A stretch of DNA of 64,000 nucleotides from Minisyncoccota bacterium (lineage in GTDB: Bacteria > Patescibacteriota > Minisyncoccia > Phycocordibacterales > UBA9973). Position 1 is the stretch's first letter; every line of letters begins with the position of its first letter. The notes below the pieces were generated by a model, which was not told the origin of the DNA, ran no database searches, and worked only from the letters and a program-made list of their open reading frames with translations. Below, piece after piece: positions 4,344 to 49,684 of the stretch. The stretch spans positions 21,107 to 85,106 of the forward strand of contig JBAYHR010000001.1 of the NCBI GenBank assembly GCA_041666045.1, in the 5' to 3' direction. Position numbers and translations under genes: made by a program.

Positions 4344-4432
4344 AATAGTGTATAATTGATATACTTGTCCCGTTAGAAATTTAATAAGCGGGAGAATAAA
4401 ATAATATGAAAAAAATTAAAATTTCTAATGGG

Positions 4433-7852: not shown

Positions 7853-7928
7853 CCTTATTTGGTAATGTGTACACACATTAAGCATAAAAAATACCTCAGA
7901 ATCTATAAAGATCTGAGGTATTAAATAT

Positions 7929-8738
7929 TTAATTTCTGTGTCCATAGTAACTGTTGTTACCATTTCCACTAGAATGGTTATTGCTGTATCCATTACCATG
8001 ATTATGGCTACAATTTCCACCATAATGGTTTGAATAAGAACTTGCCCCGAATGGAGCTGTTACAACTTTTTGAATACTATAACCACCATATCGTTGATAG
8101 TTGTTGCGATAATAAATTGGTGGATCTGGTATAAAAACTGCACCAGTTCTAACTGTAACTTGTTTTCCGTAAACAATGTTTTCTTGTTGGTAGTTTTGAT
8201 TGTTAATAGAATTATTTTCATTAACGTAAACTTTCCCAACATTGTCATTGTTTACATTTGCATTAGTTTCTTGTTTGGGTATTTTTATTTTTTCAACTCT
8301 TGTTACGGGTACTGCGAGAATATTTCCGCATTTACTTCTTATTATAATAATTGAAAATGTTCCAATTCTGAAGACCCATGCAAACTCACTACCAGTAGGA
8401 TTTTTATGCCCGATGCTTTGGACAATTTTTTTAGTTTTAGGATCCCATCCAGAATTCATATAACCACCTTCTTCTAAATAAACTTCTTCAAGATAAAGAT
8501 GATTAAAGATTTCATTTATTCTAGTATTAGAAACTTTAAATATTGTATCTTTTAATCCAGCATTTATGTTTTCAATAAGAGAATTTCTGAATGCGAAACC
8601 TTTTGCAGTTTCTTGGAAAGCTAATTCTTTTAATTCTTCTTTTGAAGGAGAATTATATTTTGGAAAAATAGCTTGTACTTGTCCAAAAGAGCTGAGCTCG
8701 ATCCCAAAAAGGAGAGCAAAAATAATTAAATTTTTCAT
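7929..8738 (-). CDS. secreted protein with G/N/Y/H/S-rich C-terminal tail
   Basis: Signal peptide MKNLIIFALLFGIELSSFGQVQA. C-terminal low-complexity HNHGNGYSNNHSSGNGNNSYYGHRN. Confidence 0.4.
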   Translation of the reverse strand: MKNLIIFALLFGIELSSFGQVQAIFPKYNSPSKEELKELAFQETAKGFAFRNSLIENINAGLKDTIFKVSNTRINEIFNHLYLEEVYLEEGGYMNSGWDPKTKKIVQSIGHKNPTGSEFAWVFRIGTFSIIIIRSKCGNILAVPVTRVEKIKIPKQETNANVNNDNVGKVYVNENNSINNQNYQQENIVYGKQVTVRTGAVFIPDPPIYYRNNYQRYGGYSIQKVVTAPFGASSYSNHYGGNCSHNHGNGYSNNHSSGNGNNSYYGHRN

Positions 8739-25402: not shown

Positions 25403-26698
25403 ATGCTAGGCCCGTCGGCCTGCGCAATGCTTTTTAAAAGATATTTTGATTCTATGATTAAAAGTATAAAGAAAAAATTAGCTTGCGGTGAGCAAAGTCG
25501 AACCGTTTTTGTTGGAATGTCAGGAGGTGTGGATTCGAGTGTGTCTGCAGCACTTCTTAAAAAACAAGGATATGATGTCGTTGGTGTTTTTATTCGTACT
25601 TGGCATCCAGATTTTTTAAAATGTAACGAAGAAGAAGAGCGTCGCGACGCTATGCGCGTCGCGACGCATTTAAACATTCCTTTTCTTACTTTTGACCTTG
25701 AAGATGTCTATAAAAAAGAAGTGGCAGATTATATGATTTCTGAATACAAAGCTGGCAGAACGCCAAATCCTGATGTTATGTGTAATAAAGAAGTGAAGTT
25801 TGGTGCATTTCTTAAAAAAGCTATTTCAATGGGTGCTGATTTTGTGGCTACTGGGCATTATGCTCAAATTACAAATCACATAGCACATAACATAAAACAT
25901 AAAAAACAAAAAATAAAATATAAAAATGTTACGTGTTATGAGTTATGCGTCTCCTGTGATAAATCAAAAGATCAAGCTTATTTTCTTTGGACTCTAAAAC
26001 AAGAACAACTTTCTAAAATTCTTTTTCCAGTGGGACATTTAAATAAAACAGAAGTTCGTAAATTAGCAAAGAAATTTAAATTACCAGTTGCAGAAAAGAA
26101 AGATAGTCAGGGGATTTGTTTTTTAGGAGCAGTAGATTTAAAAGATTTTTTGAAACATTATATAAAAGAAAAAAGAGGCGAGGTAATCCTCGTTCCGAGC
26201 GAAGTCGAGGAAAAGAAAAAAAATAATGTGATAGGTTGGCATACAGGAGTAGTTTTTCATACACTCGGTGAACGTCATGGTTTTACTATTACTAAAAAAA
26301 GTCCTAATGACGGGGCATATTATGTTGTTGGAAAAGATATTAAGAAAAATATTTTATATGTTTCGCAGAACAGAAATTTTACCCCCTCCTTAGTTAAGGA
26401 GGGGGTTGGGGGTGGTAATTCAAAAAATCACCACCTCGCCCTAAAGGGCACTCCTCCTCAAAAAGGAGGAGAAGAAATTAAATTAAAAAACATAAATTGG
26501 ATTTCTGGAGTTCCAAAAGAAAGTAAAAGTTATAAAGTACAGATTCGTTATCATGGAGAATTTTTGCCTTGTAAAATTAAAATCACTGGGAAAAGTACAG
26601 CTGAAGTTATTTTTCAAAAACCAGTGTTAGTAGCTTCTGGTCAATCTTGTGTTTTCTATGATAAAGATATTTGTTTAGGTGGGGGAGTTGTTATATAA
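25403..26698 (+). CDS. mnmA: tRNA-specific 2-thiouridylase MnmA carrying in-frame insertions
   Basis: PP-loop VFVGMSGGVDSSVSAALL, KDQAYFLW, C-terminal barrel. Likely true start at 25454 (MIKSIKKK). Extra segments include the 26382-26471 repeat element. Confidence 0.8.
   Translation: MLGPSACAMLFKRYFDSMIKSIKKKLACGEQSRTVFVGMSGGVDSSVSAALLKKQGYDVVGVFIRTWHPDFLKCNEEEERRDAMRVATHLNIPFLTFDLEDVYKKEVADYMISEYKAGRTPNPDVMCNKEVKFGAFLKKAISMGADFVATGHYAQITNHIAHNIKHKKQKIKYKNVTCYELCVSCDKSKDQAYFLWTLKQEQLSKILFPVGHLNKTEVRKLAKKFKLPVAEKKDSQGICFLGAVDLKDFLKHYIKEKRGEVILVPSEVEEKKKNNVIGWHTGVVFHTLGERHGFTITKKSPNDGAYYVVGKDIKKNILYVSQNRNFTPSLVKEGVGGGNSKNHHLALKGTPPQKGGEEIKLKNINWISGVPKESKSYKVQIRYHGEFLPCKIKITGKSTAEVIFQKPVLVASGQSCVFYDKDICLGGGVVI
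26382..26471 (+). repeat. GC-rich palindromic element inserted in frame in mnmA (copy A)
   Basis: cccctccttagttaaggaggg ... ctcctcaaaaaggaggag. About 95% identical to the reverse complement of 43406-43493. Encodes KEGVGGGNSKNHHLALKGTPPQKGG. Confidence 0.7.
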
Positions 26699-27574: not shown

Positions 27575-27675
27575 TTTTAAAAAAAAGTATAGAAATAGAG
27601 GACCTATGTTTACGAAAGTAAATATGGGTCTTTTTTTATTTGTATAAATCATTAGTACAAGTTATAATATAAACA

Positions 27676-27747
27676 CTTGTCCCGTTAGAAATTCGACTGA
27701 CGTGGAATAAGTATAAGAATTATTAATTTAAAATTTCTAATGGGATG
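27676..27747 (+). promoter_or_regulatory. 5' leader hairpin element (ACTTGTCCCGTTAGAAATT ... AAATTTCTAATGGG-ATG)
   Basis: 13-bp stem, about 37-nt loop. TATAAT box 6 nt upstream of the 5' arm. The 3' arm abuts ATG 27745. Near-identical to 31089-31160. Confidence 0.55.
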
Positions 27748-28209
27748 ACACAATTTTTTACACAAAATAGTGAAGTGATTATAAGATTAGCAGTAGCAAT
27801 TGGTTTAGGTATGTTGATTGGCGCTGAGCGTCTTTTAGTGCATAAAGAAGCTGGTATGAAAACGCACGCTCTTGTTTCTATGGGTTCAGCTCTTTTCATT
27901 ATTATTTCCGAATACTTAGCAATAAAATATTCAGGGTTGAGCGGTTTTAATCCTGCGATGATAGCGTCAAATATAATAGTTGGTATTGGATTTTTGGGAG
28001 CCGGTTCTATAATATTTCAAGGTTCTCGTTTAAGCGGGCTTACGACCGCTAGCGGTCTTTGGGTGACAGCTGGTATTGGTATGGCAGCTGGTTTTGGACT
28101 TCTTGGTCTCGCTGTTATTTCCACTGTTTTAGTGCTTCTTATTTTTATAATTATGAATATTTTTGAAAAGCCAATTAAAAGAATTTCTGGAGACGACTTA
28201 CATCAGTAA
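27745..28209 (+). CDS. MgtC/SapB family membrane protein
   Basis: IIRLAVAIGLGMLIGAERLLVHKEAGMKTHALVSMGSALF matches the MgtC N-terminal domain. Confidence 0.7.
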   Translation: MTQFFTQNSEVIIRLAVAIGLGMLIGAERLLVHKEAGMKTHALVSMGSALFIIISEYLAIKYSGLSGFNPAMIASNIIVGIGFLGAGSIIFQGSRLSGLTTASGLWVTAGIGMAAGFGLLGLAVISTVLVLLIFIIMNIFEKPIKRISGDDLHQ

Positions 28210-29903: not shown

Positions 29904-31085
29904 ATGGGGATTTTTTCAAAAGATAAAAAGAAAAAAGATCTTACTCTAATATTTGATATTGGTTCATCTTCTGTTGGCGGAGCGCTTTGTTATATTGAAA
30001 ATTCTGGTACTCCAAAAATAATTTATTCTATTCGTGAGCCAATCTCAATTCAAAATGAAGTTAGTTTTGATACATTATTATCTTCAATAATGAAATCTCT
30101 TGATATTGTGGCAAATAAAATTTGTACGATGGGTTTTGGAAAACCCGATAAAATTTTTTGTTTTCTTTCGTCTTTATTATATGGTTCACAAACTAGAACC
30201 ATTAAATTAGAGAAAAATAATTCTTTTATTTTTACTTTAAAAATTGCTGATAGTCTTATTAAAAAAGAGATAAGTCTTTTTGAAGAAGAACGTTTAATAA
30301 AACATATTCATTCTAATGAGCAAATTAGACCGATTGAATTAAAAAATATGAAAACTATGCTCAATGGTTATGCCGTTGATAAACCTTTAGATAAAAAAAT
30401 TAAAGAAATTGAAATGAATGTTTTTATTTCAATGAGTTCAGATGAAATACTTAAAAAAATAGAATATACAATAGGTAAATATTTTAATCCTAAAGATATA
30501 AAATTTTCTTCTTTTCTGATGGCATTTTTTACTGTAATTCGTGATATGTTTGCATACCATGAAAGTTTCCTTTTAGTTGATATTGATGGGGAAATTACTG
30601 ATATTTCAATAATAAAAAATGATGTATTGTGTGAGTCAATTTCTTTTCCTAATGGACTTAATTTTATAACACGTGGAGTTGCAAATTTTTTAAATTTATC
30701 ACTAGATGAAGCAAAGTCGCTTATCTCTCTTTATAAAGATGATTATATGGAAGAGCAAATAAAAAAGAAATTTGATCCAGTGATAAATAAATTAAAAGAA
30801 GAATGGCTGAAAAAATTTCAAGAATCTTTATTTAATATTTCAAATAATATTTCTATTCCATTAAATATTTTTTTAATAAGCGATAAAGACTTTTTAGATT
30901 TTTTTACAAAAATAATTAAAACTGAAGAGTTTAATCAATATGCTTTAACTCAATCAAAATTCAAAATAACTTCTTTAAACACAAAAGAACTTCACGGCAT
31001 AGCAACTTTTAAGGAAAATATATATCGTGATCCTTTTCTTACTATTGAATCTATTTACATTAATCGTCTTTCTGATAAAATATAG
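29904..31085 (+). CDS. actin-like ATPase domain protein (FtsA/PilM-like)
   Basis: Phosphate-1 LIFDIGSSSVGGAL and phosphate-2-like LLVDIDGEITDISI. 393 aa. Confidence 0.4.
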   Translation: MGIFSKDKKKKDLTLIFDIGSSSVGGALCYIENSGTPKIIYSIREPISIQNEVSFDTLLSSIMKSLDIVANKICTMGFGKPDKIFCFLSSLLYGSQTRTIKLEKNNSFIFTLKIADSLIKKEISLFEEERLIKHIHSNEQIRPIELKNMKTMLNGYAVDKPLDKKIKEIEMNVFISMSSDEILKKIEYTIGKYFNPKDIKFSSFLMAFFTVIRDMFAYHESFLLVDIDGEITDISIIKNDVLCESISFPNGLNFITRGVANFLNLSLDEAKSLISLYKDDYMEEQIKKKFDPVINKLKEEWLKKFQESLFNISNNISIPLNIFLISDKDFLDFFTKIIKTEEFNQYALTQSKFKITSLNTKELHGIATFKENIYRDPFLTIESIYINRLSDKI

Positions 31086-31088
31086 TTA

Positions 31089-31160
31089 CTTGTCCCGTTA
31101 GAAATTCGACTGACGGGCAATAAAGATAAAATTATTAATATTTAAATTTCTAATGGGATG
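31089..31160 (+). promoter_or_regulatory. 5' leader hairpin element (ACTTGTCCCGTTAGAAATT ... AAATTTCTAATGGG-ATG)
   Basis: Same stem as 27676-27747. Loop begins with the shared CGACTGACG motif. The 3' arm abuts ATG 31158. Confidence 0.55.
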
Positions 31161-32444
31161 TCAAAAAATTTACTTCAAGATATAATAAAAGTTAAATATG
31201 TAAAAAAGGAGAAAGAGGAAGTTCCACAAAGGATTGAACGTCCGGAATCTCGTATTTTTTCTCGTCCAAAATTTTCTGAACCAGAATTTACTGAAGAAGA
31301 GGATAATAAAAAACCGCGTTATTCTTTATGGATTGTAGCTTTGGTTTCAATTGTATTTCTTTTTTTTGCAATTTCCTTTTTATTTTCTGGAGCAAAAATC
31401 ACAATTAATCCTAAAACAAAAGATATTTCTTTGAATCAAAACTTTTCTGCGGTGAAAGATTCTAACAATAGCGATACTTTATCTTTTGATTTAGTGGCTA
31501 TTTCTGGTGAAGAAAATAAGATAGTTCAAGTAGATGAAGAAAAAGATTTATTGGTAAAAGCAGAAGGTATTGTTGTAATTTATAATGCTTTTAATTCTTC
31601 TTCTCAAACTCTTGATATAGATACACGTTTAGAAGGATCAAATGGAAAAATTTACAAAACTAAAGAAAAGATAAAAGTTCCAGGCATGACAAAAGATGGT
31701 AAACCAGGTTCTGTTGAAGTTGGCATATATGGGGTAGAAGCTGGGGAAGAATACAATAGTACTCCGCTTGATTTTAAAATTTTTGGTTTTAAGGGAAGTT
31801 CTAAGTATGATAAGTTTTATGCAAGATCAAAGGGAGAAATAATTGGGGGTATTATTGGTAAATTTTATCAAATTTCTGATACTGAAAAAGTAGCAGTTGT
31901 GAATGAATTAAAAGATACACTTAAAACAAAACTTTTAGAAAAAATAAACGATCAAATTCCAAATGGCTTTGTATTATTTAAAGATGCTGTATTTCTTAAT
32001 ATAAATAATGAAAATCAAAGTTTTGTTTCTAAAGATAATCAAGTGCCTGTCAATATAAAAGGCACGCTTTACGGTTTTTTATTTAATGGAGAAAAATTAA
32101 CAAAGAAAATTATTGAAACTGATGTTGAAGATTATGATGGCAGTGATGTTTACATATCTAATCTTAGTAATTTAATATTTTCTATTTCAGGTGGAGAAAT
32201 TGCCTCATTTAAAGATGTAAAAAATATTGATTTTAATTTATCTGGTACTGCTAAAATCGTTTGGAATTTTGATGGAGAAAAACTTATTACAGATCTTTTA
32301 GGAAAGAAAAAGAAAGATTTTAATCAAATTTTAACGCTATATTCCAATATAGAGTCTGCAGATTTAGTAATTAAACCTGCTTGGAAAAATTCTTTTCCTG
32401 ATAAAAGTAAAGATATAAAAATTATAGTGAATTATCCTAATTAA
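31158..32444 (+). CDS. membrane-anchored protein of unknown function (428 aa)
   Basis: Single TM near residue 60, then a large extracytoplasmic domain. Follows the FtsA-like gene. Confidence 0.45.
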   Translation: MSKNLLQDIIKVKYVKKEKEEVPQRIERPESRIFSRPKFSEPEFTEEEDNKKPRYSLWIVALVSIVFLFFAISFLFSGAKITINPKTKDISLNQNFSAVKDSNNSDTLSFDLVAISGEENKIVQVDEEKDLLVKAEGIVVIYNAFNSSSQTLDIDTRLEGSNGKIYKTKEKIKVPGMTKDGKPGSVEVGIYGVEAGEEYNSTPLDFKIFGFKGSSKYDKFYARSKGEIIGGIIGKFYQISDTEKVAVVNELKDTLKTKLLEKINDQIPNGFVLFKDAVFLNINNENQSFVSKDNQVPVNIKGTLYGFLFNGEKLTKKIIETDVEDYDGSDVYISNLSNLIFSISGGEIASFKDVKNIDFNLSGTAKIVWNFDGEKLITDLLGKKKKDFNQILTLYSNIESADLVIKPAWKNSFPDKSKDIKIIVNYPN

Positions 32445-32500
32445 TTTTCCACTTTTATATTTGACTTTATATTTAATTTTGTTAGAATTATTAAATCCAA

Positions 32501-32770
32501 ATGAGTGATCTGAAAAATGAAAAAATTTTAACAGCACATGGTTTTATAACTGAAGCCTTGCCCAGTACTTTGTTTAGAGTAAAGATATCTGCCCGAAATG
32601 CTTCGCATAGCGATGCAGGCGGGGAAGACAAAGTGGAAGGTGAGAAAGAAATCCTTGCTTACCTTTCAGGTAAAATGCGAATGCATAGGATTAAGGTTTT
32701 AATTGGAGATTCTGTTGAAGTGGTTTTAGATCCCTATGGTGGAAAAGGAAGAATAGTTAAAAGGTTGTAA
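32501..32770 (+). CDS. infA: translation initiation factor IF-1 with an ~18-aa in-frame insertion
   Basis: S1 domain LPSTLFRV...LSGKMRMHRIKVLIGDSVEV...GKGRIV. Extra SARNASHSDAGGEDKVEGEK is absent from canonical 72-aa IF-1. Confidence 0.85.
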   Translation: MSDLKNEKILTAHGFITEALPSTLFRVKISARNASHSDAGGEDKVEGEKEILAYLSGKMRMHRIKVLIGDSVEVVLDPYGGKGRIVKRL

Positions 32771-32882
32771 TTTTTTTAATAATGGTGTATCATAGTAATT
32801 ACGGTTTTTAAAAAATGAAAAAGATTGAAAAATAAGGGTTTCCCCCTTGTTTTTATCTTGTTTTGAATAAAAATGTATTTTT

Positions 32883-32993
32883 ATGAAAATTAAATCAGCA
32901 GTAAAAAAAATTTGTGATAATTGTAAAATAGTAAAACGCCAAAGGCATTTGCGAGTAATTTGTTCTAACCCAAAACATAAGCAAAAACAATAA
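32883..32993 (+). CDS. rpmJ: 50S ribosomal protein L36
   Basis: [36 protein letters not shown]. Zinc-ribbon CxxC...C...H pattern. Missed by the track because it is only 36 aa. Confidence 0.8.
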
Positions 32994-32996
32994 TTT

Positions 32997-33377
32997 ATGA
33001 GAATTCTTGGAATAACAGTACCAAATGAAAAGAGACTTGAGATTGGATTAACATGCCTTTATGGTATTGGCGTTTCTTCTGCTCGTAAGATTTTAGATCA
33101 AGTTGGAATTGATCATGGTAAAAAAGCAAAAGATCTAACTGATGCTGAAGAAAATAAAATTCGTGCAATAGTTGAAGGAATGACGATAGAGGGAAATTTA
33201 AAAAGAGAAGTTTCTGCAAATATTAAAAGATTGAAAGATATAAAATCTCACAGAGGTGTTCGTCACATGAAGAGATTACCAGTAAGAGGTCAAAGAACTA
33301 AAACAAATTCAAGAACAGTTAGAGGAAATGTTAGAAAAACAATGGCATCAGGTAAAAGAAAAGAAAGTAAAACATAG
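32997..33377 (+). CDS. rpsM: 30S ribosomal protein S13
   Basis: MRILGITVPNEKRLEIGLTCLYGIG... Confidence 0.9.
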   Translation: MRILGITVPNEKRLEIGLTCLYGIGVSSARKILDQVGIDHGKKAKDLTDAEENKIRAIVEGMTIEGNLKREVSANIKRLKDIKSHRGVRHMKRLPVRGQRTKTNSRTVRGNVRKTMASGKRKESKT

Positions 33378-33410
33378 TTCGACAAGCTCACTATAAATAA
33401 ATTAATTAAA

Positions 33411-33842
33411 ATGGGAAAAACAAAAATTACAACAGAATCAAATACAGAAACACCAAAAGAAGAAAAGGTGGTACAAACAAAAACTTCAAAGAAGAAAATA
33501 ATTTCCGGTGTTTTGCATGTTGATGCAACTTTTAATAATACCAAAGTTCTCTTTTCTGATAAATTAGGTAATTCATTATTTTGGTCAAGTTCCGGTTCTT
33601 TGGGTTTTAAGGGTGCAAAAAAAGGAACTCCATTTGCAGCATCTAAAGTTGGCGATATTATTGGAAGTAAAGCAGAAATACTTGGAGTAAAAGATTCAGA
33701 TGTTGTAGTACGAGGAGTTGGATCTGGACGTGAACCAGCAATTAGAGCATTTATGGCTCATGGCATAGAAATTACTTCTATCAAAGACGCTACACCAGTA
33801 CCACATAATGGACCAAAAGCTAAGAAGCCAAGACGTGTATAA
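33411..33842 (+). CDS. rpsK: 30S ribosomal protein S11
   Basis: GVLHVDATFNNTKVLFSD...VRGVGSGREPAIRA. Confidence 0.9.
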   Translation: MGKTKITTESNTETPKEEKVVQTKTSKKKIISGVLHVDATFNNTKVLFSDKLGNSLFWSSSGSLGFKGAKKGTPFAASKVGDIIGSKAEILGVKDSDVVVRGVGSGREPAIRAFMAHGIEITSIKDATPVPHNGPKAKKPRRV

Positions 33843-33868
33843 AAGTTTACAAATAAAATAAATTAACA

Positions 33869-34474
33869 ATGATATCAAAACCAAAATTTAAAATTTGCAG
33901 AAGATTAGGACCAGGAGTTTATGACAAATGTCAAACTTCTAAGTTTTCTTCTGCTTCTGGAAAATTTGCTGGACCCGGAGCGCGTCGCCCAAAGGCTCTT
34001 TCTGAATATGGAGCTCAACTTGTTGAAAAACAGAAAATTCGTTTTTCTTATGGAATAACTGAACGTCAACTTTCAAATTATGTTAAAAAAGCTTCACATA
34101 TAAAAGGAGCTGGAACTGCAGAAAAATTTTATGAAGAACTTGAATCTCGTCTTGATAATGTAATTTATAGAATGGGACTTGGAAATAGCAGACGCGCAAC
34201 AAGACAAATGGTTTCCCATGGACATTTTATTGTTAATGATCACAAAGTTACTATTCCTTCATACGAAGTGAAAGTTGGGGATGTAATAAAAATACGTGAA
34301 GGATCTAAGACTAAGAAAATTTTTGAAAATTTAGTTGAGAAAGTTAAGGATTATAATCCTCCAGCATGGGTTTCATTTGATGCAGTTAAGATGGAGGGAA
34401 AAGTTTTAGCTAAACCAAAAAATACAGAGATATTTCTTGATTTGAATGCTGTGCTTGAGTTCTATAGTCGTTAA
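33869..34474 (+). CDS. rpsD: 30S ribosomal protein S4
   Basis: RQMVSHGHFIVNDHKVTIPSYEVKVGDVIKI is the S4 domain. Confidence 0.9.
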   Translation: MISKPKFKICRRLGPGVYDKCQTSKFSSASGKFAGPGARRPKALSEYGAQLVEKQKIRFSYGITERQLSNYVKKASHIKGAGTAEKFYEELESRLDNVIYRMGLGNSRRATRQMVSHGHFIVNDHKVTIPSYEVKVGDVIKIREGSKTKKIFENLVEKVKDYNPPAWVSFDAVKMEGKVLAKPKNTEIFLDLNAVLEFYSR

Positions 34475-34526
34475 TTTTTTTTGAATTTGTTTTTATTATT
34501 AACTTTTAAAATTTTTATAAAAAAAT

Positions 34527-35516
34527 ATGCCTGAATATAAAATAATTATGCCTTCTAAACCACGTGTTGTTTTAGAAGAAGGAAATAAGGGAGTATTTGA
34601 AATAGACGGTTTGTATCCTGGATATGGCCATACGTTAGGAAATAGCTTAAGAAGAATTATTCTTTCTTCTTTGCCGGGCGCTAGTATTACATCTATAAAA
34701 ATTGATGGTGTTTCTCATGAATTTTCAACAATGGAAGGAGTTAAAGAAGATGTAATAGTAATAATTTTAAATTTGAAAAAAGCTCGTTTTAAAATGTTGT
34801 CTGATGAATCTCAGGTAGTTACTTTATCAATAAAAGGACCAAAAGATGTTACAGCTGGAGATATAAAGACTGGTGGACAAGTAGAAATTTTAAATCCAGA
34901 TCTTCACATAGCTTCTGTTACAGGTAAAGTTAATTTAAATATTGAAATGACAATAGAGAAAGGTTTAGGTTTCATTGCAAAAGAAGTTTTGCAAAAAGAA
35001 AAAGTAGACGTAGGCACAATTAATGTTGATGCTATTTTTACTCCTATTCGTAGAGTTTCTTATGAAGTAGAAAATATGCGTGTTGGTGACAAAACGAACC
35101 ATAATCGCTTAAGAATTTCTATTGAAACAGATGGAACGTTAACTCCTCGTGAGGCTCTTTCAAAATGTATTGAAATAATGATAAATCAACTTAAAGCTAT
35201 TATTGATTTTAAGGAACCAGAGGAAGAAATTAAAATACCTGCCCGCAATGCTTCGCATGGCGATGTAGGTGGGGAAAAGTCTGACTCTGAAGATAAAAAA
35301 GGAGATGATTTTACTGATGTATTAAAAACTAGAACAGATAGTCTAGATCTTTCTACAAGAACCTTAAATGCCTTAACTGCTGCAAATATCAGAACACTTG
35401 GAGGTCTTGCAAGAAAAAAGAGAGAAGATTTGCTTGAAGTAGAAGGTATTGGAGAAAAAGGAATAACAGAAATAAAGAAAGTATTAAGTAAATTTGGATT
35501 AAACCTTAAGGAATAA
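34527..35516 (+). CDS. rpoA: DNA-directed RNA polymerase alpha subunit with in-frame insertion in the interdomain linker
   Basis: NTD and CTD (HhH TRTLNALTAANIRTLG) recognisable. The linker contains PARNASHGDVGGEKSDSEDKKG, whose DNA matches the infA insert. Confidence 0.9.
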   Translation: MPEYKIIMPSKPRVVLEEGNKGVFEIDGLYPGYGHTLGNSLRRIILSSLPGASITSIKIDGVSHEFSTMEGVKEDVIVIILNLKKARFKMLSDESQVVTLSIKGPKDVTAGDIKTGGQVEILNPDLHIASVTGKVNLNIEMTIEKGLGFIAKEVLQKEKVDVGTINVDAIFTPIRRVSYEVENMRVGDKTNHNRLRISIETDGTLTPREALSKCIEIMINQLKAIIDFKEPEEEIKIPARNASHGDVGGEKSDSEDKKGDDFTDVLKTRTDSLDLSTRTLNALTAANIRTLGGLARKKREDLLEVEGIGEKGITEIKKVLSKFGLNLKE

Positions 35517-35549
35517 ATTACTAGAATCTAGCAACTAGAACCTAATTAT

Positions 35550-35903
35550 ATGAGACACCATAATAGTAAAAGAAAATTTGGAAGAGAAAAAAATGAAAGA
35601 AAAGCCTTGCTTAATTCTTTGGCGCTTAATTTGATCATACGTGAAAAAATTAAAACAACAGAACCAAAAGCAAAAGAATTAAAACCTTTTATTGAAAAAC
35701 TTGTAACTCGTGCAAAAAAGGGAGATTTAGCTACACGTAGAACAGTTATATCCAAACTTTCAAATCGCAGTCGTGAAGTTAAAAAGCTCTTTGAGGTGAT
35801 AGCACCAAAGTATGCTGACAAAAAAGGAGGATATACAAGAGTTTTGAAATTAGGAGCAAGAAAGTCTGATGGAGCAAAGATGGCAATAATAGAATTTGTG
35901 TAA
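35550..35903 (+). CDS. rplQ: 50S ribosomal protein L17
   Basis: MRHHNSKRKFGREKNERKALLNSLA... Confidence 0.9.
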   Translation: MRHHNSKRKFGREKNERKALLNSLALNLIIREKIKTTEPKAKELKPFIEKLVTRAKKGDLATRRTVISKLSNRSREVKKLFEVIAPKYADKKGGYTRVLKLGARKSDGAKMAIIEFV

Positions 35904-36870: not shown

Positions 36871-37485
36871 ATGAGTGATGAAGAAATAAAAAAATCTGAA
36901 AATATAGAAGAAATTCCTGTTTCTCCTGAAGAAGTTGATTCTGAGGTTGTAGAATTTGAATTTAATGATGATGGGGAAGAGGATTTAAAGAAGACCCTAA
37001 AGAAACTTAGAGCTGATTTAAAAGTTTGTAGAAAAGAAAAGGAAGAGTATTTAACTGGTTGGCAGAAAGAGCGAGCAGAATTTGCTAATTATAAAAAACA
37101 AGAAGAAGACAGAAAAGCAAACTTTTCGGAAGGCTTGCGAGAAAGAATACTTTCAAGATTTCTTACTGTTATAGATAGTTTCAATATGGCTTTTGCAAAT
37201 AAAGAAGGCTGGGAAAAAGTTGATGAAAATTGGCGTAAGGGTGTGGAATATATTTATACGCAGATGAATAATATTTTTGAAGAATATGGAGTAAAACCAG
37301 TAGGAGAAATAGGGGAATCTTTTGATCCAAGCATGCATGAATCAATAGAAATGGTACCAACTGATAAAAAACAAGATGATCATAAAGTTTCTCAAGTGGT
37401 TCAAAAAGGTTACAAATTAGGCGATCGCATTATTCGTCCAGCTAGGGTGAATATATTTGAATATAATGAATCAGCAGGAAAGTAG
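36871..37485 (+). CDS. grpE: nucleotide exchange factor GrpE
   Basis: Coiled-coil N-terminus. C-terminal GESFDPSMHESIEMVP...GDRIIRPARV. Confidence 0.8.
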   Translation: MSDEEIKKSENIEEIPVSPEEVDSEVVEFEFNDDGEEDLKKTLKKLRADLKVCRKEKEEYLTGWQKERAEFANYKKQEEDRKANFSEGLRERILSRFLTVIDSFNMAFANKEGWEKVDENWRKGVEYIYTQMNNIFEEYGVKPVGEIGESFDPSMHESIEMVPTDKKQDDHKVSQVVQKGYKLGDRIIRPARVNIFEYNESAGK

Positions 37486-39124
37486 AAATTGTGAACACTG
37501 TAATCAAAAATTCTCAATATCTGAGGGTGAATTATCTTTATATAAAAAAGTTGGTATTGAACTGCCAACAATATGTTTCTTTTGTAGAGTAAAACAACAT
37601 TTATCTTTTTGGATGTTTGGAAAATTTAGAAAAGGGAAGTCGGATCTTTCGGGAGAAAGTTTGATTACAGTTTTACCAGAGAAAAATAGATATCCTATTT
37701 ACACATTGCATGAATGGCACAGTGACGCGTGGGACGCTATGGATTATGGTCAAGATTATGATTCATCAAAATCATTTTTTACTCAATTACAAGAACTTCA
37801 AGAAAAAGTTCCTCATTCTCATCAAAATGGTGCTAAAAATACAAATTGTGATTGGTGCGATGATGTATGGAATTCAAAGAATTGTTATTTATCACGTTCT
37901 ATGGAAACGTGTGAAGATTTATATTATTCATACAGAAATTTATGGGTGAAAAATTCAATTGATGTATCAGTTTGTTTTTATTCAGAGAAATGTTTTGATT
38001 GCGTAAATTGTTATAATTCTTACAAATTATTTTATTCTAGGAATTCCAAAGATTGCATTGATTCATATTTTTTACAGGATTGCAGAAATTGTCAGAATTG
38101 TTTTATGTGTTGGAATCTCAGGGGTAAATCATATTGTATAGAAAATATTCAATACACCAGGGAAGAATATTTAGAAAAATTAAAAACTTTTAAGCTTCAT
38201 TCGTATAATTCAATTCAGAAATATAAAAGACAGTTAGACAAAATAGCTCAAAACGAAGTAGTTCACAGAGAAAATTTTAATCTCAAAACTTATAATTCTG
38301 ATGGAGACAATTTAACTAACACAAAAGACTGCTACAATTGCTTTACAATTAATGATTCTGAAGATAGCTATAATTGTATTAGGGGAATGAAACAAAAATC
38401 AGATATTGATACTAATGGTTGTTGGTATTCTGAATTATTAGGCAATTGCAGTTGTTGTCTAAACAGTTATGCAGAAAAATATAGCGTGTGGTCTTCGTCT
38501 AGATATTCTGAGTATTTAGATTTATGCATAGAATGTGAATATTGTTTTGGTTGCGTAGGTTTAAAAAAGAAAAAATATTGTATTTTAAATAAACAATATG
38601 AGAAAGTTGAATATGAAAAACTTCGTGAACAAATTATTTCAGATATGAAAAAGCAAGGTGAATATGGCAAGTTTTTGCCTTATTCTATGTCCGCCGGACC
38701 ATTCAATTTTTCTACTAGTTTTTTGTATTTTCCAGATGTTAAAAAAGAAGATATTTTGAAACTTGGTGGTTATTGGGAAGATATCAACGAAAGCCACATA
38801 GATGGAATGCCCACAAGTGAATTACCTGATTCTATAAATGACGTATCCGATGATATTTGCTCTAAGGCTCTTATTTGTCCTGCCACTGGTTGGCGTTTTA
38901 ATATCGCTCAAAATGAGCTTTCTTTTTATAGAGAAAACAATATTCCATTACCGAGATATCATTTTGATGTACGAATAAAAGATAATATGAAATATACAAC
39001 TGTTTTACAAGCTTATCCTTATAAATGTTTTTATTGTAAAAAAGATATAAATGCATATTATCCACCAGAATGGGAATATAAAAAAATAGCTTGCGAAGAA
39101 TGTTATAAACAAAATATAAGTTAA
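37457..39124 (+). CDS. large cysteine-rich protein, paralog A (zinc-ribbon-like termini, internal duplication)
   Basis: 555 aa with dense CxxC / CxNCxNCFxC motifs. Two internal copies of C..CFGCV.L....YCI.NKQY.KEEY. N- and C-terminal E.EL.FY.....LP..C..C modules. Confidence 0.5.
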   Translation: MNIMNQQESRNCEHCNQKFSISEGELSLYKKVGIELPTICFFCRVKQHLSFWMFGKFRKGKSDLSGESLITVLPEKNRYPIYTLHEWHSDAWDAMDYGQDYDSSKSFFTQLQELQEKVPHSHQNGAKNTNCDWCDDVWNSKNCYLSRSMETCEDLYYSYRNLWVKNSIDVSVCFYSEKCFDCVNCYNSYKLFYSRNSKDCIDSYFLQDCRNCQNCFMCWNLRGKSYCIENIQYTREEYLEKLKTFKLHSYNSIQKYKRQLDKIAQNEVVHRENFNLKTYNSDGDNLTNTKDCYNCFTINDSEDSYNCIRGMKQKSDIDTNGCWYSELLGNCSCCLNSYAEKYSVWSSSRYSEYLDLCIECEYCFGCVGLKKKKYCILNKQYEKVEYEKLREQIISDMKKQGEYGKFLPYSMSAGPFNFSTSFLYFPDVKKEDILKLGGYWEDINESHIDGMPTSELPDSINDVSDDICSKALICPATGWRFNIAQNELSFYRENNIPLPRYHFDVRIKDNMKYTTVLQAYPYKCFYCKKDINAYYPPEWEYKKIACEECYKQNIS

Positions 39125-39165: not shown

Positions 39166-40950
39166 ATGAGCAAAAACAATGAAAAAAGAATATGCCAAAA
39201 CTGTAAAAAAGATTTTGTTATAGAACAAGAAGATTTTAACTTTTATGAAAAAATAAAAGTCCCAGCACCAACTTGGTGCCCAGAGTGTAGGTTAATAAGA
39301 AGATTAGCTTATCGTGAATCTAGACCTTTGTATAAAGATATTTGTGATAAATGTGGGGAGGAAATTATAAGTATTTTTGCAGAAAATTCTGAAATTATAG
39401 TTTATTGTAGTTCCTGTTGGTGGGGAGATAGCTGGGATGCAATGGATTATGGAAAAGATTATGATTTTTCTAGACCTTTCTTTGAACAATTTTATGAATT
39501 ACAAAAATTAGTACCTCGTGAAGCTACTGGTCAAAAAAATTCTGAAAATTGTCAATATTCCAATGGTGATGTTCGTTGTAAAAACTGTACTTTAACTTTT
39601 GATTGTCTTGAGGCTATTAATTGTTATAATTCTCAAATTGCCATATTTTCTAAAGATTCAATAGATTCAGATAGCGTTATGAATGCTGATCATACTTATG
39701 ATAATTTGTGTTCAAATGGTATTTATAATACAAAATTTATTTATTATTCTGATGAATGTCTTGATTGCTCTTTTCTTTTTTATTGCTTAGGGTGTACAAA
39801 TTGTTTTGGTTGTGTAAATTTAAGAAATCAAAAATATTGTATTTGGAATAAACAATACACAAAAGAAGAATATAAAAAAGAAATTGAGAAATGGGATTTG
39901 GGTAGTTATAAAACTATACAAAAAGCAAAGGAAAAATTTATGGAACTTTATTATAAAATTCCAAGGCGTTTTGCTTTTATAACAAATTCCATTAATGTTA
40001 CTGGAGAAGATATTATAAATAGTAAAAATTGCAAAAATTGTTTTTTTACTAGGCATGGAGTAGAAAATTGTAAATATATTTTTTCATGTGGTTTGCTCTT
40101 AAAAGATAGTTATGACGCTACTTTTGGAGGAGATAAATCAGAAATATTTTATGAAACAAATGGCGGAATGCAATCCCAAAGATGTTTTTTTAGTCGTGCA
40201 CCTAATGGTTCTAAGGACATAGAATATTCCGATAGAGTTTTTAACTGTTCTAATTTATTTGGTTGCGTAAATTTGAGAAATAAAAGTCATTGTATTTTTA
40301 ATAAGCAATATACTAAAGAAAAATATTTTGAAATGGTAGAAAAAATAAAAAGGCAAATGAATGAAATGCCATACATTGATAGAATGGGCAGAATTTATAA
40401 ATATGGAGAATTTTTTCCTAGTGAGTTGTCCCTATGGGCATATAATAAAAGCTGGGGACATGAATTTTTTCCATTAAACAAAGAAGATATTTTAAAAAGA
40501 GGATTTAATTGGCAGGACGACCCCAAAAGAGATTATGAAATAACTATTAAATCAAAAGATTTACCTGATCATATTAATGATGTTTCAGATGATATTTTAG
40601 ATGAAGTAATAGAATGTGAACATAATGGAAAAGATTGTAATCAGCAATGCACTACAGCTTTTAGGATTTTACCGAATGAATTGCAATTTTACAGGCAGAT
40701 GAATTTAGCTTTACCAAGGTTATGTCCAAATTGTCGCCACTATGAACGAATTAAAAAAACAAACCCACCAAAACTTTGGCATAGAAAGTGTATGTGTAAT
40801 GGCGTAGAATCAAGCAATAAGGAATATAAAAATACTATTAAACATTTTCATGGAGATAAACCATGTTCCAATGAATTTGAAACTGCTATAAGTGATGAAA
40901 GAAAAGAGATAGTGTATTGTAAAGAATGTTATCAAGCTGAATTTATATGA
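39166..40950 (+). CDS. large cysteine-rich protein, paralog B
   Basis: 594 aa. Same architecture as 37457-39124: CTNCFGCVNLRNQKYCIWNKQYTKEEY and CSNLFGCVNLRNKSHCIFNKQYTKEKY. Confidence 0.5.
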   Translation: MSKNNEKRICQNCKKDFVIEQEDFNFYEKIKVPAPTWCPECRLIRRLAYRESRPLYKDICDKCGEEIISIFAENSEIIVYCSSCWWGDSWDAMDYGKDYDFSRPFFEQFYELQKLVPREATGQKNSENCQYSNGDVRCKNCTLTFDCLEAINCYNSQIAIFSKDSIDSDSVMNADHTYDNLCSNGIYNTKFIYYSDECLDCSFLFYCLGCTNCFGCVNLRNQKYCIWNKQYTKEEYKKEIEKWDLGSYKTIQKAKEKFMELYYKIPRRFAFITNSINVTGEDIINSKNCKNCFFTRHGVENCKYIFSCGLLLKDSYDATFGGDKSEIFYETNGGMQSQRCFFSRAPNGSKDIEYSDRVFNCSNLFGCVNLRNKSHCIFNKQYTKEKYFEMVEKIKRQMNEMPYIDRMGRIYKYGEFFPSELSLWAYNKSWGHEFFPLNKEDILKRGFNWQDDPKRDYEITIKSKDLPDHINDVSDDILDEVIECEHNGKDCNQQCTTAFRILPNELQFYRQMNLALPRLCPNCRHYERIKKTNPPKLWHRKCMCNGVESSNKEYKNTIKHFHGDKPCSNEFETAISDERKEIVYCKECYQAEFI

Positions 40951-42977: not shown

Positions 42978-43595
42978 TTATATTTTTTTAACATTTTCTA
43001 AAAATGCTTTATTTGTTTCTGGGTCAAGTTTATCTGTAACTATTATCATAAGTTCTGTGGAGAGCTCAAGATCTTTTTTGATATTTGTAAATAAGTTTTC
43101 ATAAGGAAAAGGTGAGACCCAAACAGTATTTTTTATACAAACAAAATTTGCTTTCTTTAAAAGATAACGCAATGATTCTCTTTCTGATTTTCTTTCTTCT
43201 GGAAGGTCTAGAATTATAATTCTCCAAAATCCATCCCAAGTAGTTGAGACTAGGGCATCTTCACCTTCGAGTTTTATGCAGTTTAATTTAGATTTTCCTT
43301 TTTTAGTTATTTTCAAATAGTCTTGATTATCCGAATGAACCATTTCAGCGCAACCTGATTCTATTAGATTTTTAACAGAACGGGTTATTGCGTAACCAGT
43401 TTTATCTCCTCCTTTTTGAGGAGGAGTGCCCTTTAGGGCGAGATGGTGATTTTTTGAATTACCACCCCCAACCCCCTCCTTATTAAGGAGGGGAGTTTTA
43501 TTCTCCATTTTTTTATTTAATTCACCAATAGAAATAGCTGGCTTTTCAGCTAATACTTTTAAAATAACCTTTTGTATATTAGGTTTTTTAAACAT
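42978..43595 (-). CDS. PaaX-like winged-helix regulator family protein carrying an in-frame repeat insertion
   Basis: C-terminal W.GFWRIIILDLPEERKSERESLRYLLKKANFVCIKNTVWVSPFP resembles the PaaX C-domain. Start set at MFKK, which follows the TGCTATAAT box. The track ORF begins at 43631. Confidence 0.45.
   Translation of the reverse strand: MFKKPNIQKVILKVLAEKPAISIGELNKKMENKTPLLNKEGVGGGNSKNHHLALKGTPPQKGGDKTGYAITRSVKNLIESGCAEMVHSDNQDYLKITKKGKSKLNCIKLEGEDALVSTTWDGFWRIIILDLPEERKSERESLRYLLKKANFVCIKNTVWVSPFPYENLFTNIKKDLELSTELMIIVTDKLDPETNKAFLENVKKI
43406..43493 (-). repeat. GC-rich palindromic element inserted in frame (copy B)
   Basis: Reverse complement matches 26382-26471 apart from about 4 substitutions. 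Same reading frame and peptide KEGVGGGNSKNHHLALKGTPPQKGG. Confidence 0.7.
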
Positions 43596-43741
43596 AATAT
43601 AAATTATAGCAAATATTAGTAATTTTAACAACTATTTCGCGACCACGAAATACTTGTCAAAAAATTAGGCTTAGTATATAATAGGGCTATTAATTATTAA
43701 CCCTGATTATCGGGTCAGGAAATTTAAATAAAATATATATT

Positions 43742-45725: not shown

Positions 45726-47846
45726 ATGGAATTGTCAGAAATACCTAAAAATAAAGATCTCACATACCTTGGGCTTACCACATTTCGTGATAAAAATAGA
45801 CTTTTTGGCATAAAGCGCAAAGATAGACGTCAGCATGTTTATGTTCTTGGAAAATCAGGTACAGGTAAATCTGTGCTTATGTTTAATATGGTTATTCAGA
45901 ATGTTGTAAATGGCGATGGTGTTTGTGTTGTAGATCCTCACGGTGAACTTGTGGAAGCAGTATTGTCTGCTATTCCACCACATAGATTAAAAGATGTTGT
46001 TTATTTTAATCCTGCTGATACAGATTACCACATTGGTTTTAATGTTTTAGAACTTGCTGATCCTAAATATAAACATTTAGTTGCATCAGGTCTCATGGGA
46101 ATTTTCACAAAGATTTGGGCAAATGCTTGGTCTGCTCGTATGGAATATATTTTAAACAATGCAATTTTAGCCTTACTTGATACTCCCGGGACGACACTTC
46201 TTGGTATCCCTAGAATGTTAGTGGACAAAGATTACAGACAGAAAATTATTTCAAATTTGAAAGATCCTGTTATTAAAGCTTTTTGGGTTCACGAATATGA
46301 AGCTTGGCAAGATAAATTCAGAAATGAAGCTATCGCGCCTATTCAGAATAAAGTTGGACAATTTCTTTCCAGTTCAATAATTCGTAATGTTGTTGGTCAA
46401 TCTATAAGTACAATAAATATTTTTGACATAATGAATGAGGGAAAGATTTTCCTTGTGAATGTTTCAAAGGGACGTATTGGTGAAGACAATTCTGCATTAT
46501 TAGGAGGAATGTTAATTACGAAAATTCAGCTTGCCGCTATGGAGCGCGTGCGTATTCCAGAAGATGACAGAAAAGATTTTTATTTATATGTTGACGAATT
46601 TCAAAACTTTGTTACTGATTCTTTTGCAAGTATTTTGTCAGAAGCTAGAAAATACAGATTGAATCTTACTGTTGCCCATCAATACACCGCTCAGCTTGTT
46701 TCAGACAAAAGTTCCAGCGTGCGTGATGCGGTTTTTGGAAACGTTGGAACAATGATAATTTTTCGTTGTGGCGCCGATGATGCTGATTTTTTAGAAAAAG
46801 AATTTGATCCTGAATTTACTCCGCAAGATATTGTAAATTTGCCAAACTATAAAGTTTATTTAAAACTTATGATAGATGGTGTAACATCAAGGCCATTTTC
46901 CGCAAAAACTTTGCCTCCGATGGTGAAGTCGGGAAATAAAGAAATAGAAAATGAAGTTATTAGATCTTCTCGGGCTCTTTATTGCAAATCAAAAGAAGTT
47001 GTTGAAAGAGAAATCAATAATTGGTCTGGAATGTCCATTGGAAATGAAAACGAGACAGGTAATATGGAGAAATTTAGCGCCAAATGTTCAATTTGTTTTA
47101 GTGATACTTTTGTTCCATTTAAACCAGAACCAGGAAGGCCAGTTTATTGTAGAGATTGTATAGCTAAAATGAAATCAGGGGAATTGAAACCGTTAAAAGG
47201 TTCAATGAAACAAATTTCTTATGATGAAACTAAATTTTTCAAACCTTTGGCTGATTTGGGTATAGAATTTCAACAAAAGGATACTTTAAGCAGTAAGCCC
47301 GAAGAAGAAAGATATTCTGAAAGAGTTAATAAACAAATTGCACATAATCAGGTTAATAAAAGTGGAAATAATAAACCAGGGATTTTTTCAGCAATTAAAA
47401 AGGTATTTACACCGCCTTTTGCAAGAGACAGGTTTAATAAAAATATTCCACCAAAACATATTCGTTCTGGCGAGGAAAATTTAGCATTAAGAGATATTTT
47501 AAACAAAACTCTTTCAGAAAATAAAGTTTTTGAAAATAAAAAAGAAGAGGTTAAGGAGATTGAAGAAGTAAAAAAAGAAACACCAGCACCGATTTCTTTA
47601 AATGAATTGGGAAATTCAAAACCTGCAACTCAATCAAAATTGAAAGATAGATCTGCAAGTAATGAAAAAATGAATAATTTAAAAAATTTAATTTCAGAAA
47701 AAACAAAAGAACAAGAAAAGCAAAAAGAAGAAAAAGTTGAAATAAAAAAAGAGCCAGAAATTAAAAAAGAGGAAAAGCCCACTATTCCACAAAAAGAGAA
47801 AGTGAAAGAAGTACCAGAAGACGTTTTAAGAAAAATTTTAGAATAA
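45726..47846 (+). CDS. FtsK/HerA-superfamily P-loop ATPase (DUF87 / VirD4-TraG-like) with zinc ribbon and K/E-rich tail
   Basis: Walker A VLGKSGTGKS, Walker [12 protein letters not shown], sensor [14 protein letters not shown]. CxxC...CxxC ribbon (CSICF...CRDC). Long lysine/glutamate-rich C-terminus. Confidence 0.6.
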   Translation: MELSEIPKNKDLTYLGLTTFRDKNRLFGIKRKDRRQHVYVLGKSGTGKSVLMFNMVIQNVVNGDGVCVVDPHGELVEAVLSAIPPHRLKDVVYFNPADTDYHIGFNVLELADPKYKHLVASGLMGIFTKIWANAWSARMEYILNNAILALLDTPGTTLLGIPRMLVDKDYRQKIISNLKDPVIKAFWVHEYEAWQDKFRNEAIAPIQNKVGQFLSSSIIRNVVGQSISTINIFDIMNEGKIFLVNVSKGRIGEDNSALLGGMLITKIQLAAMERVRIPEDDRKDFYLYVDEFQNFVTDSFASILSEARKYRLNLTVAHQYTAQLVSDKSSSVRDAVFGNVGTMIIFRCGADDADFLEKEFDPEFTPQDIVNLPNYKVYLKLMIDGVTSRPFSAKTLPPMVKSGNKEIENEVIRSSRALYCKSKEVVEREINNWSGMSIGNENETGNMEKFSAKCSICFSDTFVPFKPEPGRPVYCRDCIAKMKSGELKPLKGSMKQISYDETKFFKPLADLGIEFQQKDTLSSKPEEERYSERVNKQIAHNQVNKSGNNKPGIFSAIKKVFTPPFARDRFNKNIPPKHIRSGEENLALRDILNKTLSENKVFENKKEEVKEIEEVKKETPAPISLNELGNSKPATQSKLKDRSASNEKMNNLKNLISEKTKEQEKQKEEKVEIKKEPEIKKEEKPTIPQKEKVKEVPEDVLRKILE

Positions 47847-48154: not shown

Positions 48155-49684
48155 ATGGCAAAGACGAATCGGGTTCAGATAATCAAATATGCTCCGCCTC
48201 CACCAGAATTACCTGTTTTTGGAAAGGTAAAACCAGAAGAGGTTTCTTTTATTGGGCGTACGAATTATGTCGCTGCTCTTGAAGAAAAGAAGTTTATTTT
48301 CGGTATAAAGCGTGTTGACCGCCGAAGGCACCTTTATATTATTGGAAAGTCTGGCGTTGGTAAGACCAAGCTTCTTGAGCTTATGATTAGACAAGATGTT
48401 ACATATGGCCATGGTATGTGTTTAATTGACCCACATGGTGATGTTATTGATGCAATGCTGGATTATATACCTAAAGAGCGTATTGAAGATGTTTGCATTA
48501 TAGATCCTTCAGATGTTGATTTCCCAGCTTCTTTCAACCCTTTGGCAAATGTTGATCCAATGTTTAAATTTCAATTGACTCAAGGTTTGATTGAAGTTCT
48601 ACAAAAACAATTCGGGGCAAATTGGACTCCAAGACTTGAGCACGTTTTTCGTTTTACATGTTTAGCCTTACTTGATTATCCTCATGCGACAATGCGCGGA
48701 ATGATATCAATGCTTACAGATAGAAATTATAGACAGAAAGTTGTTGAATATATTACAGATGATATGGTTAAAAGATTCTTCGCAATCGAATTCGCGGATT
48801 GGTCTGAAAAATTTGATACAGACGCCATTATTCCGCTTGTAAATAAACTCGGACAATTTTTGTCTGATCCTTTGCTTCGTAATATTTTCGGACAAAAACA
48901 AAATAAAATAGATATTAGCAAATTGATGAATGAGCAGAAAATAATTTTTATTAATTTATCTAAGGGACGTATCGGTGAGGAAAATTCGTCTTTCTTTGGT
49001 TCAATGTTTTTAACAAAAATAAAACAAGCTGGAATGGAACGTGCTGCTATTCCTGAAAATGAGCGCAATGATTTTTATCTGTATGTAGACGAGTTCCAAA
49101 ATATAGTTACTCAAACATTTGAAAATATTTTGTCAGAAGCTAGAAAATATGGTTTGAATTTAACTGTTGCTCATCAATACGTAGGACAGATTTTACCAAA
49201 AGTTCATCAAGCTGTGTTAGGAAACGTGGGTAGTGTTATTACTTTCCGTGTTGGAGGAGAAGATGCTGTAAAATTAAAACCAGAATTTGCTCCAATATTC
49301 GAAGTTAAAGATATGATCAACTTAGCTGTTGGTGAAATTTATGTCAAGATGACAATTGATGGAGAATCTTACGATCCATTTTCTGCTGAAACTTTAAGAG
49401 TTTTACCGCCAACGCATCCATCATATAAAAAAGAAATTATTGAAGCTTCTCGTAAAAAATATTCAATTTCAAAAGATGACGCACAAAAGCTTATTTCAGA
49501 AGAAGAAGCAACGATTATAAGAAGTGCTGAAGAAAAAGCAATTATAGAAGGAAAAGCAAAAAGGAAAGCGAAAGAAAATAAGAAAGAAATAGAAGAAACA
49601 GATGAAGAAGAAGAAATAGAAGAAGAGAAAGAAAAAATAGTACAAAAAATAAAAAAAGATGGCGAATCTGAGCCAATGATTTAA
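48155..49684 (+). CDS. FtsK/HerA-superfamily P-loop ATPase, paralog of 45726-47846
   Basis: [38 protein letters not shown]-rich tail. About 40% identical to the upstream paralog by eye. Confidence 0.6.

Follow-up and report, generated by a model that had tools for sequence, protein, structure and literature searches.

Why should two universal genes of one bacterium carry, in frame, the same short stretch of DNA? The question is raised by infA and rpoA in a 64,000-nucleotide stretch of a Minisyncoccota genome (hereafter, the window), for which the initial annotation, made from the sequence alone, had claimed a single nucleotide element shared by both genes, GC-rich against an AT-rich background and not attributable to convergence. 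The shared element and its composition were borne out. A degenerate 38-mer with up to 3 mismatches allowed matched these two sites and no others in the window, gave 0 matches in 100 dinucleotide-preserving shuffles of it, and a relaxed search for the termini found no third copy there; both segments have a GC content of 64%, against ~30% for the window. Chance cannot account for the two copies. They are identical at 31 of 36 nucleotides over the true unit (34 of 39 over the coordinates used earlier), and both are read in frame as ARNASH(S/G)D(A/V)GG. The consensus of the 36-nt unit, CCTGCCCGCAATGCTTCGCATAGCGATGCAGGCGGG, is a GC-rich quasi-palindrome (Table 1).

Table 1. Window copies of the 36-nt unit and the genes in which they lie.
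Feature	Coordinates	Strand	Description
Family-A hairpin mini-element	32588..32623	+	Inside infA; TCTGCCCGAAATGCTTCGCATAGCGATGCAGGCGGG; 2 differences from consensus; in frame as SARNASHSDAGG, IF-1 residues 30-41
Family-A hairpin mini-element	35238..35273	+	Inside rpoA; CCTGCCCGCAATGCTTCGCATGGCGATGTAGGTGGG; 3 differences from consensus; in frame as PARNASHGDVGG, RpoA residues 238-249
Host gene infA (IF-1, 89 aa)	32501..32770	+	PF01176 on all homologues; PDB IF-1 matches
Host gene rpoA (RNA polymerase alpha subunit, 329 aa)	34527..35516	+	Pfam domains

The extent of the unit was given by relatives that lack it. IF-1 homologues sort into length classes, and nine proteins of 77 aa (P0032, P0038, P0041, P0047-P0050, P0067 and P0068), 94-100% identical to the window IF-1, lack in the alignment exactly the 12 residues SARNASHSDAGG. 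At the DNA level, infA of a Logan assembly (L124, SRR22388057), 96.6% identical to the window infA over 234 nt, lacks exactly TCTGCCCGAAATGCTTCGCATAGCGATGCAGGCGGG, with the gap between ...GTAAAGATA and GAAGAYAAAG.... In this pair the boundaries of the insert cannot be shifted by a single base and no base is duplicated, so that the unit measures 36 nt and not the 39 nt (32588-32626 and 35238-35276) proposed previously; the extent of the rpoA copy is set by analogy. The peptide described before, ARNASH(S/G)D(A/V)GGE, therefore holds through GG, but its trailing GAA (E) belongs to the host gene. Two further loci (L125 and L126, 85% nucleotide identity) are empty at the infA site, with the same exact gap of 36 nt, and also in rpoA, where their RpoA reads ...EEEVKV followed directly by EKKVVNEDKDEDKKGDDF and that of the window reads ...EEEIKI, then PARNASHGDVGG, then EKSDSEDKKGDDF. 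This 36-nt filled/empty polymorphism in infA, the empty rpoA of close relatives and more than 130 further copies elsewhere rule out convergence.

Relatives lacking the inserts at high identity had been expected to betray an assembly chimera. Such relatives exist, but we read them as the empty side of a polymorphism, because many independently assembled relatives hold the same insert, progressively diverged. An artefact of assembly, binning or sequencing (a chimera or a contaminant oligonucleotide) would fit the near-identical relatives without inserts; its probability is next to nil, given that the same site is filled in independent NCBI, JGI, ENA and Logan assemblies, including a single-cell genome and long reads, that the insert diverges in step with its host gene, that its length is always a multiple of 3 and always in frame, and that neither the PLSDB plasmids nor the INPHARED phages contain a match to the 36-mer.

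The window infA is the sole filled member of its near-identical "HGF" IF-1 group, which, as judged from these sequences, points to a separate gain at the KI/ED codon boundary, the one used in the "RGV" group. Most RpoA homologues are without the window's rpoA copy, and three (P0121, P0122 and P0135) have diverged copies at the same linker site. In another locus with a 90% identical IF-1 (L133), rpoA (7074-8022) is called as two overlapping ORFs, probably through a frameshift in a long-read assembly.

Both inserts lie in presumably flexible parts of their proteins. The IF-1 insert had been expected in the loop between strands β1 and β2. In an AlphaFold2 model of the window IF-1 (47-sequence alignment, mean pLDDT 78), the strands span residues 10-20, 24-29, 49-55, 71-76 and 82-88, one helix spans 57-61, and the insert falls instead in the predicted β2-β3 loop of the OB fold, where pLDDT drops below 50 (residues 35-45). 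Thermus IF-1, in solved 30S complexes, has at the same place a short turn (...FRVKL-DSGPE-ILAY...). The RpoA insert falls in the inter-domain linker, since the Pfam domains RNA_pol_L/RNA_pol_A_bac extend to residue 222 and RNA_pol_A_CTD begins at 263, and this linker is of variable length among homologues. The IF-1 loop and the RpoA linker thus appear to be places tolerant of extra flexible residues, and we infer that neither IF-1 nor RpoA draws any function from its insert, which would be selfish DNA that the host tolerates. An insert-derived tryptic peptide to be expected on translation would be NASHSDAGGEDK.

Of the 36 positions of the unit, 24 are self-complementary. It folds end to end into a hairpin whose terminal stem of 6 bp is followed by 3 bp and 4 bp, each set off by a mismatch, and by a 6-nt loop (predicted -19 kcal/mol, z = -3.2); the infA and rpoA copies both fold as hairpins. 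Read from the sequence, five of the six frames are stop-free; a TAG closes the sixth, except in the common A22G variant, which lacks it. Across 131 sampled copies there is no target-site duplication (nor in the L124 filled/empty pair), no continuation of the stem into the flanks and no conserved target tetranucleotide, the flank profile showing a weak A/GA junction preference and nothing else. An all-against-all comparison of 600-nt flanks matched only orthologous genes and revealed no larger surrounding element. A permissive Rfam scan of 32300-35600 returned chance-level matches, the best one over the element being RAGATH-13 (E = 9). Selection on the hairpin after insertion is not supported, as 29 stem-position substitutions keep pairing and 30 break it.

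A short, non-coding unit with inverted-repeat-like ends resembles a conventional MITE, that is, a deletion derivative of a DDE-transposase insertion sequence. MITEs, however, combine terminal inverted repeats with a target-site duplication and span 70-300 bp (PMC3733652), whereas this unit has 36 nt and, as it leaves no duplication, falls outside that class; the sampled loci also contain no longer parent with the same ends. We see only a very faint prospect that this explanation is right.

The unit is widespread, with near-identical copies in genes of hundreds of uncultured bacteria that belong to two distant phyla or more. The 23-nt core AATGCTTCGCATNGCGATGNAGG, used as query against contigs with one genome per species, matched at least 119 genome contigs, and among the matches listed the core nearly always lies within a sharply bounded CCTGCCCGC-core-CGGG, with unrelated flanks. 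The CPR hosts among these listed matches include Davies-, Woese-, Gottesman-, Levy-, Roizman-, Collier-, Nomura-, Moran-, Staskawicz-, Buchanan-, Giovannoni-, Nealson- and Dojkabacteria, together with MAGs labelled Saccharibacteria; the non-CPR hosts listed include Verrucomicrobiota and Kiritimatiellia with 54-62% GC, including a 4.18-Mb closed chromosome. A few loci are labelled Gammaproteobacteria or Bdellovibrionales, labels that come from automatically named assemblies. In 933 kb around the listed matches, 83, 28, 13, 6 and 1 copies differ from the 36-mer consensus at 0, 1, 2, 3 and 4 positions, respectively, and none at 5-8, a spectrum biased to intact copies because the search demanded a core match. 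About two thirds of the sampled copies (~65%) are thus the consensus itself, at unrelated sites in more than 100 species, and low-GC loci (61/96) do not differ from high-GC loci (22/33) in their proportion of perfect copies. IMG/VR yielded 4 contigs, 2 with true copies and 2 with core matches without the termini. A protein search for carriers worldwide with a tandem peptide query gave 197 candidates and was uninformative, and the literature searched held no match to the DNA strings, to the peptides in four frames or to a description of RPE, REP or RAYT in CPR.

Units of 30-39 nt that have the same termini, CCTGCCCG...CAGGCGGG, but other interiors make up a superfamily with this one, and every subfamily folds as an end-to-end hairpin. 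Subfamily B, CCTGCCCGCCCTCACGAT(A/G)GTT(C/T)GGGAGCAGGCGGG, encodes PARPHD(S/G)(S/L)GAGG (PARPHDGSGAGG) and was found in 47 copies at 33 distinct sites in a scan of metagenome contigs. Subfamilies A and B occur together on one contig (L074), and in L132 one unit is nested within another in reverse orientation. We also observed composite arrangements: in the GAPDH gene of L071 (~5,600-5,720, minus strand) a family-A copy is followed 9 nt on by a different 36-nt palindromic unit, CCCGCCTCGCCCGACGAGCGTGCGAGTCGAGGCGGG (PASPDERASRGG), so that two mini-insertions adjoin in one loop, and a LigD-phosphoesterase-like ORF of L098 bears two pairs of abutting tandem copies (3560-3631 and 3890-3961), one pair matching the consensus and the other a T16A/A26T variant.

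The same gene positions have been used repeatedly. Of the 120 nearest IF-1 clusters, an A-like insert is present in at least 39, a B-like one in 17 and a decayed remnant in ~10 more, and the loop is short and empty in 16. Subfamily B sits at the same KI/ED boundary of infA in L129 and L131, and copies occupy other positions of the same IF-1 loop in P0042/L130, P0097 and P0119. In SecA, an A copy (L066) and a B copy (L135) both follow ...YVVK, and L043 has a further A copy 183 nt away; P0147 and P0174 have independent copies in the RpoA linker, nearer the C-terminal domain, and rpsI has received independent insertions too, at different positions in the gene. Across CPR, the unit is hosted by core genes of translation, transcription, secretion and energy metabolism, which encode IF-1, RpoA, S9, SecA, GAPDH, ATP synthase and TrpRS. 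At orthologous IF-1 sites the insert peptide diverges fast (PARNATHSDVSG, SVRNTSHDDASG, LSGNASQSNMGG), with the remaining IF-1 75-100% conserved. Neither peptide nor hairpin is kept up in inserted copies, and the many perfect copies must therefore be recent and come from a sequence-constrained source.

These data bear on the possibility that the insertions are ancient and now immobile, their patchiness being due to vertical inheritance with precise deletions or to filled alleles having spread through uptake of DNA with homologous recombination. Diverged copies are indeed present at the same site in many relatives of IF-1 and RpoA, which shows long vertical persistence, and CPR bacteria are thought to take up DNA. 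We nevertheless regard this scenario as improbable: consensus copies at unrelated sites in so many species do not fit it, nor does the lone filled window infA in an otherwise empty near-identical clade; lineages differ in the position occupied within the same loop or linker, and recombination is unable to put the unit into unrelated genes.

Use of the reading frame is strongly biased. In CPR loci with ORFs called, 61 of the 70 coding copies are in sense and in the one frame that gives PARNASHSDAGG, and 26 copies are intergenic; high-GC loci have 9 copies in the PARNASHSDAGG frame, 9 in other frames and 15 between genes. For subfamily B the bias is complete, with all 47 copies (33/33 sites) in sense and in the equivalent frame and 0 intergenic. 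Our calculation gives the frame-0 peptide, which begins with Pro-Ala and ends with Gly-Gly, a hydrophilic mean hydropathy of ~-1.1. Hydrophobic or Cys-containing peptides come from the sense +1 frame and from two antisense frames; the antisense frame RLHRYAKHCGQ is hydrophilic as well, yet rare. A replication-strand bias was also considered and is weak. Non-coding copies have an orientation bias of only ~2:1, whether flanking genes or GC skew is taken as the reference; frame use is therefore most simply ascribed to selection on the peptide, although the frame bias together with the lack of intergenic subfamily-B copies may need more than that.

One could go further and take PARNASHSDAGG for a selected functional module, such as a modification or cleavage site, with the nucleotide likeness secondary. 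We give very little credence to this idea, which has the strong preference for one reading frame in its favour, because synonymous positions are identical across phyla, roughly one quarter to one half of the copies lie outside coding sequence or are read in another frame, nothing relates the host proteins to one another or the places that the unit occupies in them, the peptide decays fast at orthologous sites where the host protein is conserved, and naturally empty alleles presumably function normally.

The opposite proposal, that the 36 nt are a mini-intron cut from the RNA so that the peptide is never made, draws on the strong hairpin and on several copies located in tRNA-like sequence or beside rRNA. 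RNA removal needs no open frame, however, and genic copies are nearly all in one stop-free sense frame; older copies change by whole codons and evolve as peptide; and deleting the element in silico restores no tRNA, with no match to an Rfam family either. An excised sequence is thus highly improbable. The tRNA-associated copies deserve a description of their own: five copies (L016 3653-3808, L057 3150-3274, L086, L087 and L116) lie in sequence resembling the 5' part of a tRNA (acceptor and D arm), an intact tRNA gene is present 25-90 nt downstream in each case, and in L016 and L057 the tRNA fragment and the element are tandemly duplicated. A tRNA intron was specifically rejected for these five, whose tRNAs are not restored by removing the element and stand intact downstream.

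We therefore consider it very likely that the window segments are copies of a non-autonomous mobile DNA mini-element tolerated within essential genes. The unit enters DNA as a clean 36-nt block, with neither a target-site duplication nor a flanking signature, and then decays as unconstrained loop sequence. We ascribe its survival within essential genes to its length of exactly 12 codons, its five stop-free frames and its hydrophilic Pro-Ala...Gly-Gly sense peptide, which sits in disordered loops, linkers and termini, here the IF-1 β2-β3 loop and the RpoA linker.

As the unit has no coding capacity, its mobilisation must depend on an enzyme acting in trans. By analogy with a mechanism demonstrated for IS200/IS605 and suggested for REP/RAYT, this could be a structure-specific enzyme of the HUH/Y1 type (RAYT or IS200/IS605-type) working on the single-stranded hairpin, an option that we put forward tentatively, as somewhat less than an even chance. 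A search for IS200/RAYT-like genes gave no match in ~1 Mb of neighbourhoods, a weak test given its approximate TnpA/RAYT queries; a Pfam scan of 20 window proteins likewise revealed no transposase, and clustering of 947 ORFs yielded neither a transposase nor any gene family recurring beside the copies. The ~2:1 strand bias is weaker than expected of IS200/IS605-type insertion, and the lack of a target tetranucleotide and an identical consensus across phyla also speak against this route. REP/RAYT systems are usually lineage-specific, and one consensus across phyla is atypical of them.

It is rather unlikely, but worth stating, that the units form an undescribed class of coding-adapted mobile hairpins, a 12-codon superfamily with one master sequence across phyla, whose insertion is targeted or coupled to transcribed or translated sense strands by an enzyme new to transposition. 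Sense-strand targeting would explain the near-exclusive use of sense frame 0 (every site, in subfamily B) and the use of the same infA and SecA codon boundaries by different subfamilies. Small GIY-YIG nucleases are a candidate for that enzyme, as a lead. Stand-alone small GIY-YIG genes (PF01541) were observed within 65 nt of a copy in three loci (L057 3336-3680, L101 3318-3593 and L115 57-368). In the sampled loci 3 of 6 GIY-YIG genes and 2 of 5 23S-IVS four-helix-bundle genes are near intergenic copies, proximities that are a lead and not evidence, because the numbers are small and both gene types favour intergenic DNA.

How does the element compare with known ones? The initial annotation called it RPE-like. 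RPEs are palindromic non-autonomous repeats found in frame in unrelated, often essential genes (Ogata et al. 2000; summarised in PMC10969869 and PMC3733652), with a conserved peptide compatible with the host protein fold and further copies in non-coding DNA (PMC10969869, PMC3733652); they measure ~100-150 bp (~150 bp in PMC10969869), form families RPE-1 to RPE-10 and are confined to Rickettsia. Our unit is likewise palindromic and in frame, with a conserved peptide in protein genes, but it has 36 nt, is hosted by Patescibacteria and Verrucomicrobiota and, as far as tested (Rfam and literature), shares no sequence with RPEs. It is an analogue of RPEs, not a member: the likeness holds for its behaviour, and its size and shape are nearer a single REP hairpin, in hosts that are not limited to one genus.

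REPs are GC-rich imperfect stem-loops of 20-40 bp in high copy, with subfamilies defined by stem or loop (PMC3733652). Some lie inside genes, in loops or linkers, and their mobilisation in trans by RAYT, which leaves no duplication, has been hypothesised (PMC3733652); intragenic REPs of the verrucomicrobium Opitutus terrae and Rickettsia RPE-4 and RPE-6 have been described (Di Nocera et al. 2013, PMC3733652). The unit, a GC-rich stem-loop of 36 nt in at least 131 copies, resembles them. Unlike REPs, it has no unpaired GTAG (GYAG) or CGTC tag, its internal GCAG (unit positions 28-31) being base-paired in the stem; head-to-head dimers and BIMEs give way to units that mostly stand singly; the copies in CPR genomes are mostly intragenic rather than extragenic; and one consensus spans phyla instead of a species or genus. 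The approximate queries used on the ~1 Mb of neighbourhoods gave no RAYT match. Insertion without target duplication, dependence on a DNA hairpin and the possibility of seamless excision recall IS200/IS605 elements and their miniature derivatives. Such elements require two different hairpins, one at the left end and one at the right, insert 3' of a conserved tetra- or pentanucleotide and show strong strand bias, whereas the unit is a single hairpin with no target motif and a bias of ~2:1. CRISPR repeats differ in that the copies of the unit are solitary or directly abutting, with no spacers, and no Rfam CRISPR family covers the element; self-splicing introns and inteins differ in that 36 nt or 12 aa are too short, no Rfam family matches and the loop is unstructured in the model. 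The unit is REP/RPE-like in behaviour yet a member of neither group.

Further repeats and genes of the window were recorded alongside. A second in-frame element of ~90 nt occurs at 26383-26477 (plus strand) and 43400-43494 (minus strand), 96% identical over 83 nt, in an mnmA-like gene (ORF 25403-26698) and a gene with a PaaX/Cas2-like domain (ORF 42978-43631); it is in sense in both, encodes KEGVGGGNSKNHHLALKGTPPQKGG(E/D), forms three short hairpins and is probably what the initial annotation meant by a first family. A repeat finder also returned a 107-nt direct-repeat family with three copies of 64-77% identity (4351-4457, 27663-27769 and 31076-31182). TraG/VirD4-like type IV coupling-protein ATPases are encoded by two neighbouring genes (45726-47846 and 48155-49684), of which the first also has a treble-clef zinc finger, and two paralogous Cys-rich genes are found downstream of grpE (37457-39124, without a Pfam match, and 39166-40950), with homologues recurring in the same position in L013, L017, L037, L041 and L053.

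Until now, selfish DNA within essential genes was an oddity known from Rickettsia and a few genomes rich in REPs. The enzyme that moves one 36-nt hairpin without a footprint, and the cause of the sequence constancy across phyla, can now be addressed by experiment, and filled and empty sites offer a marker for the strain-level population genetics of uncultured lineages. The unit is also a simple and recurrent means by which conserved proteins gain insertions in loops and linkers, which bears on alignments, phylogenomic markers and structure prediction for CPR. Few known genomes are smaller or more compact than those of CPR, and ultra-compact genomes can host active mobile DNA when the element is translatable.
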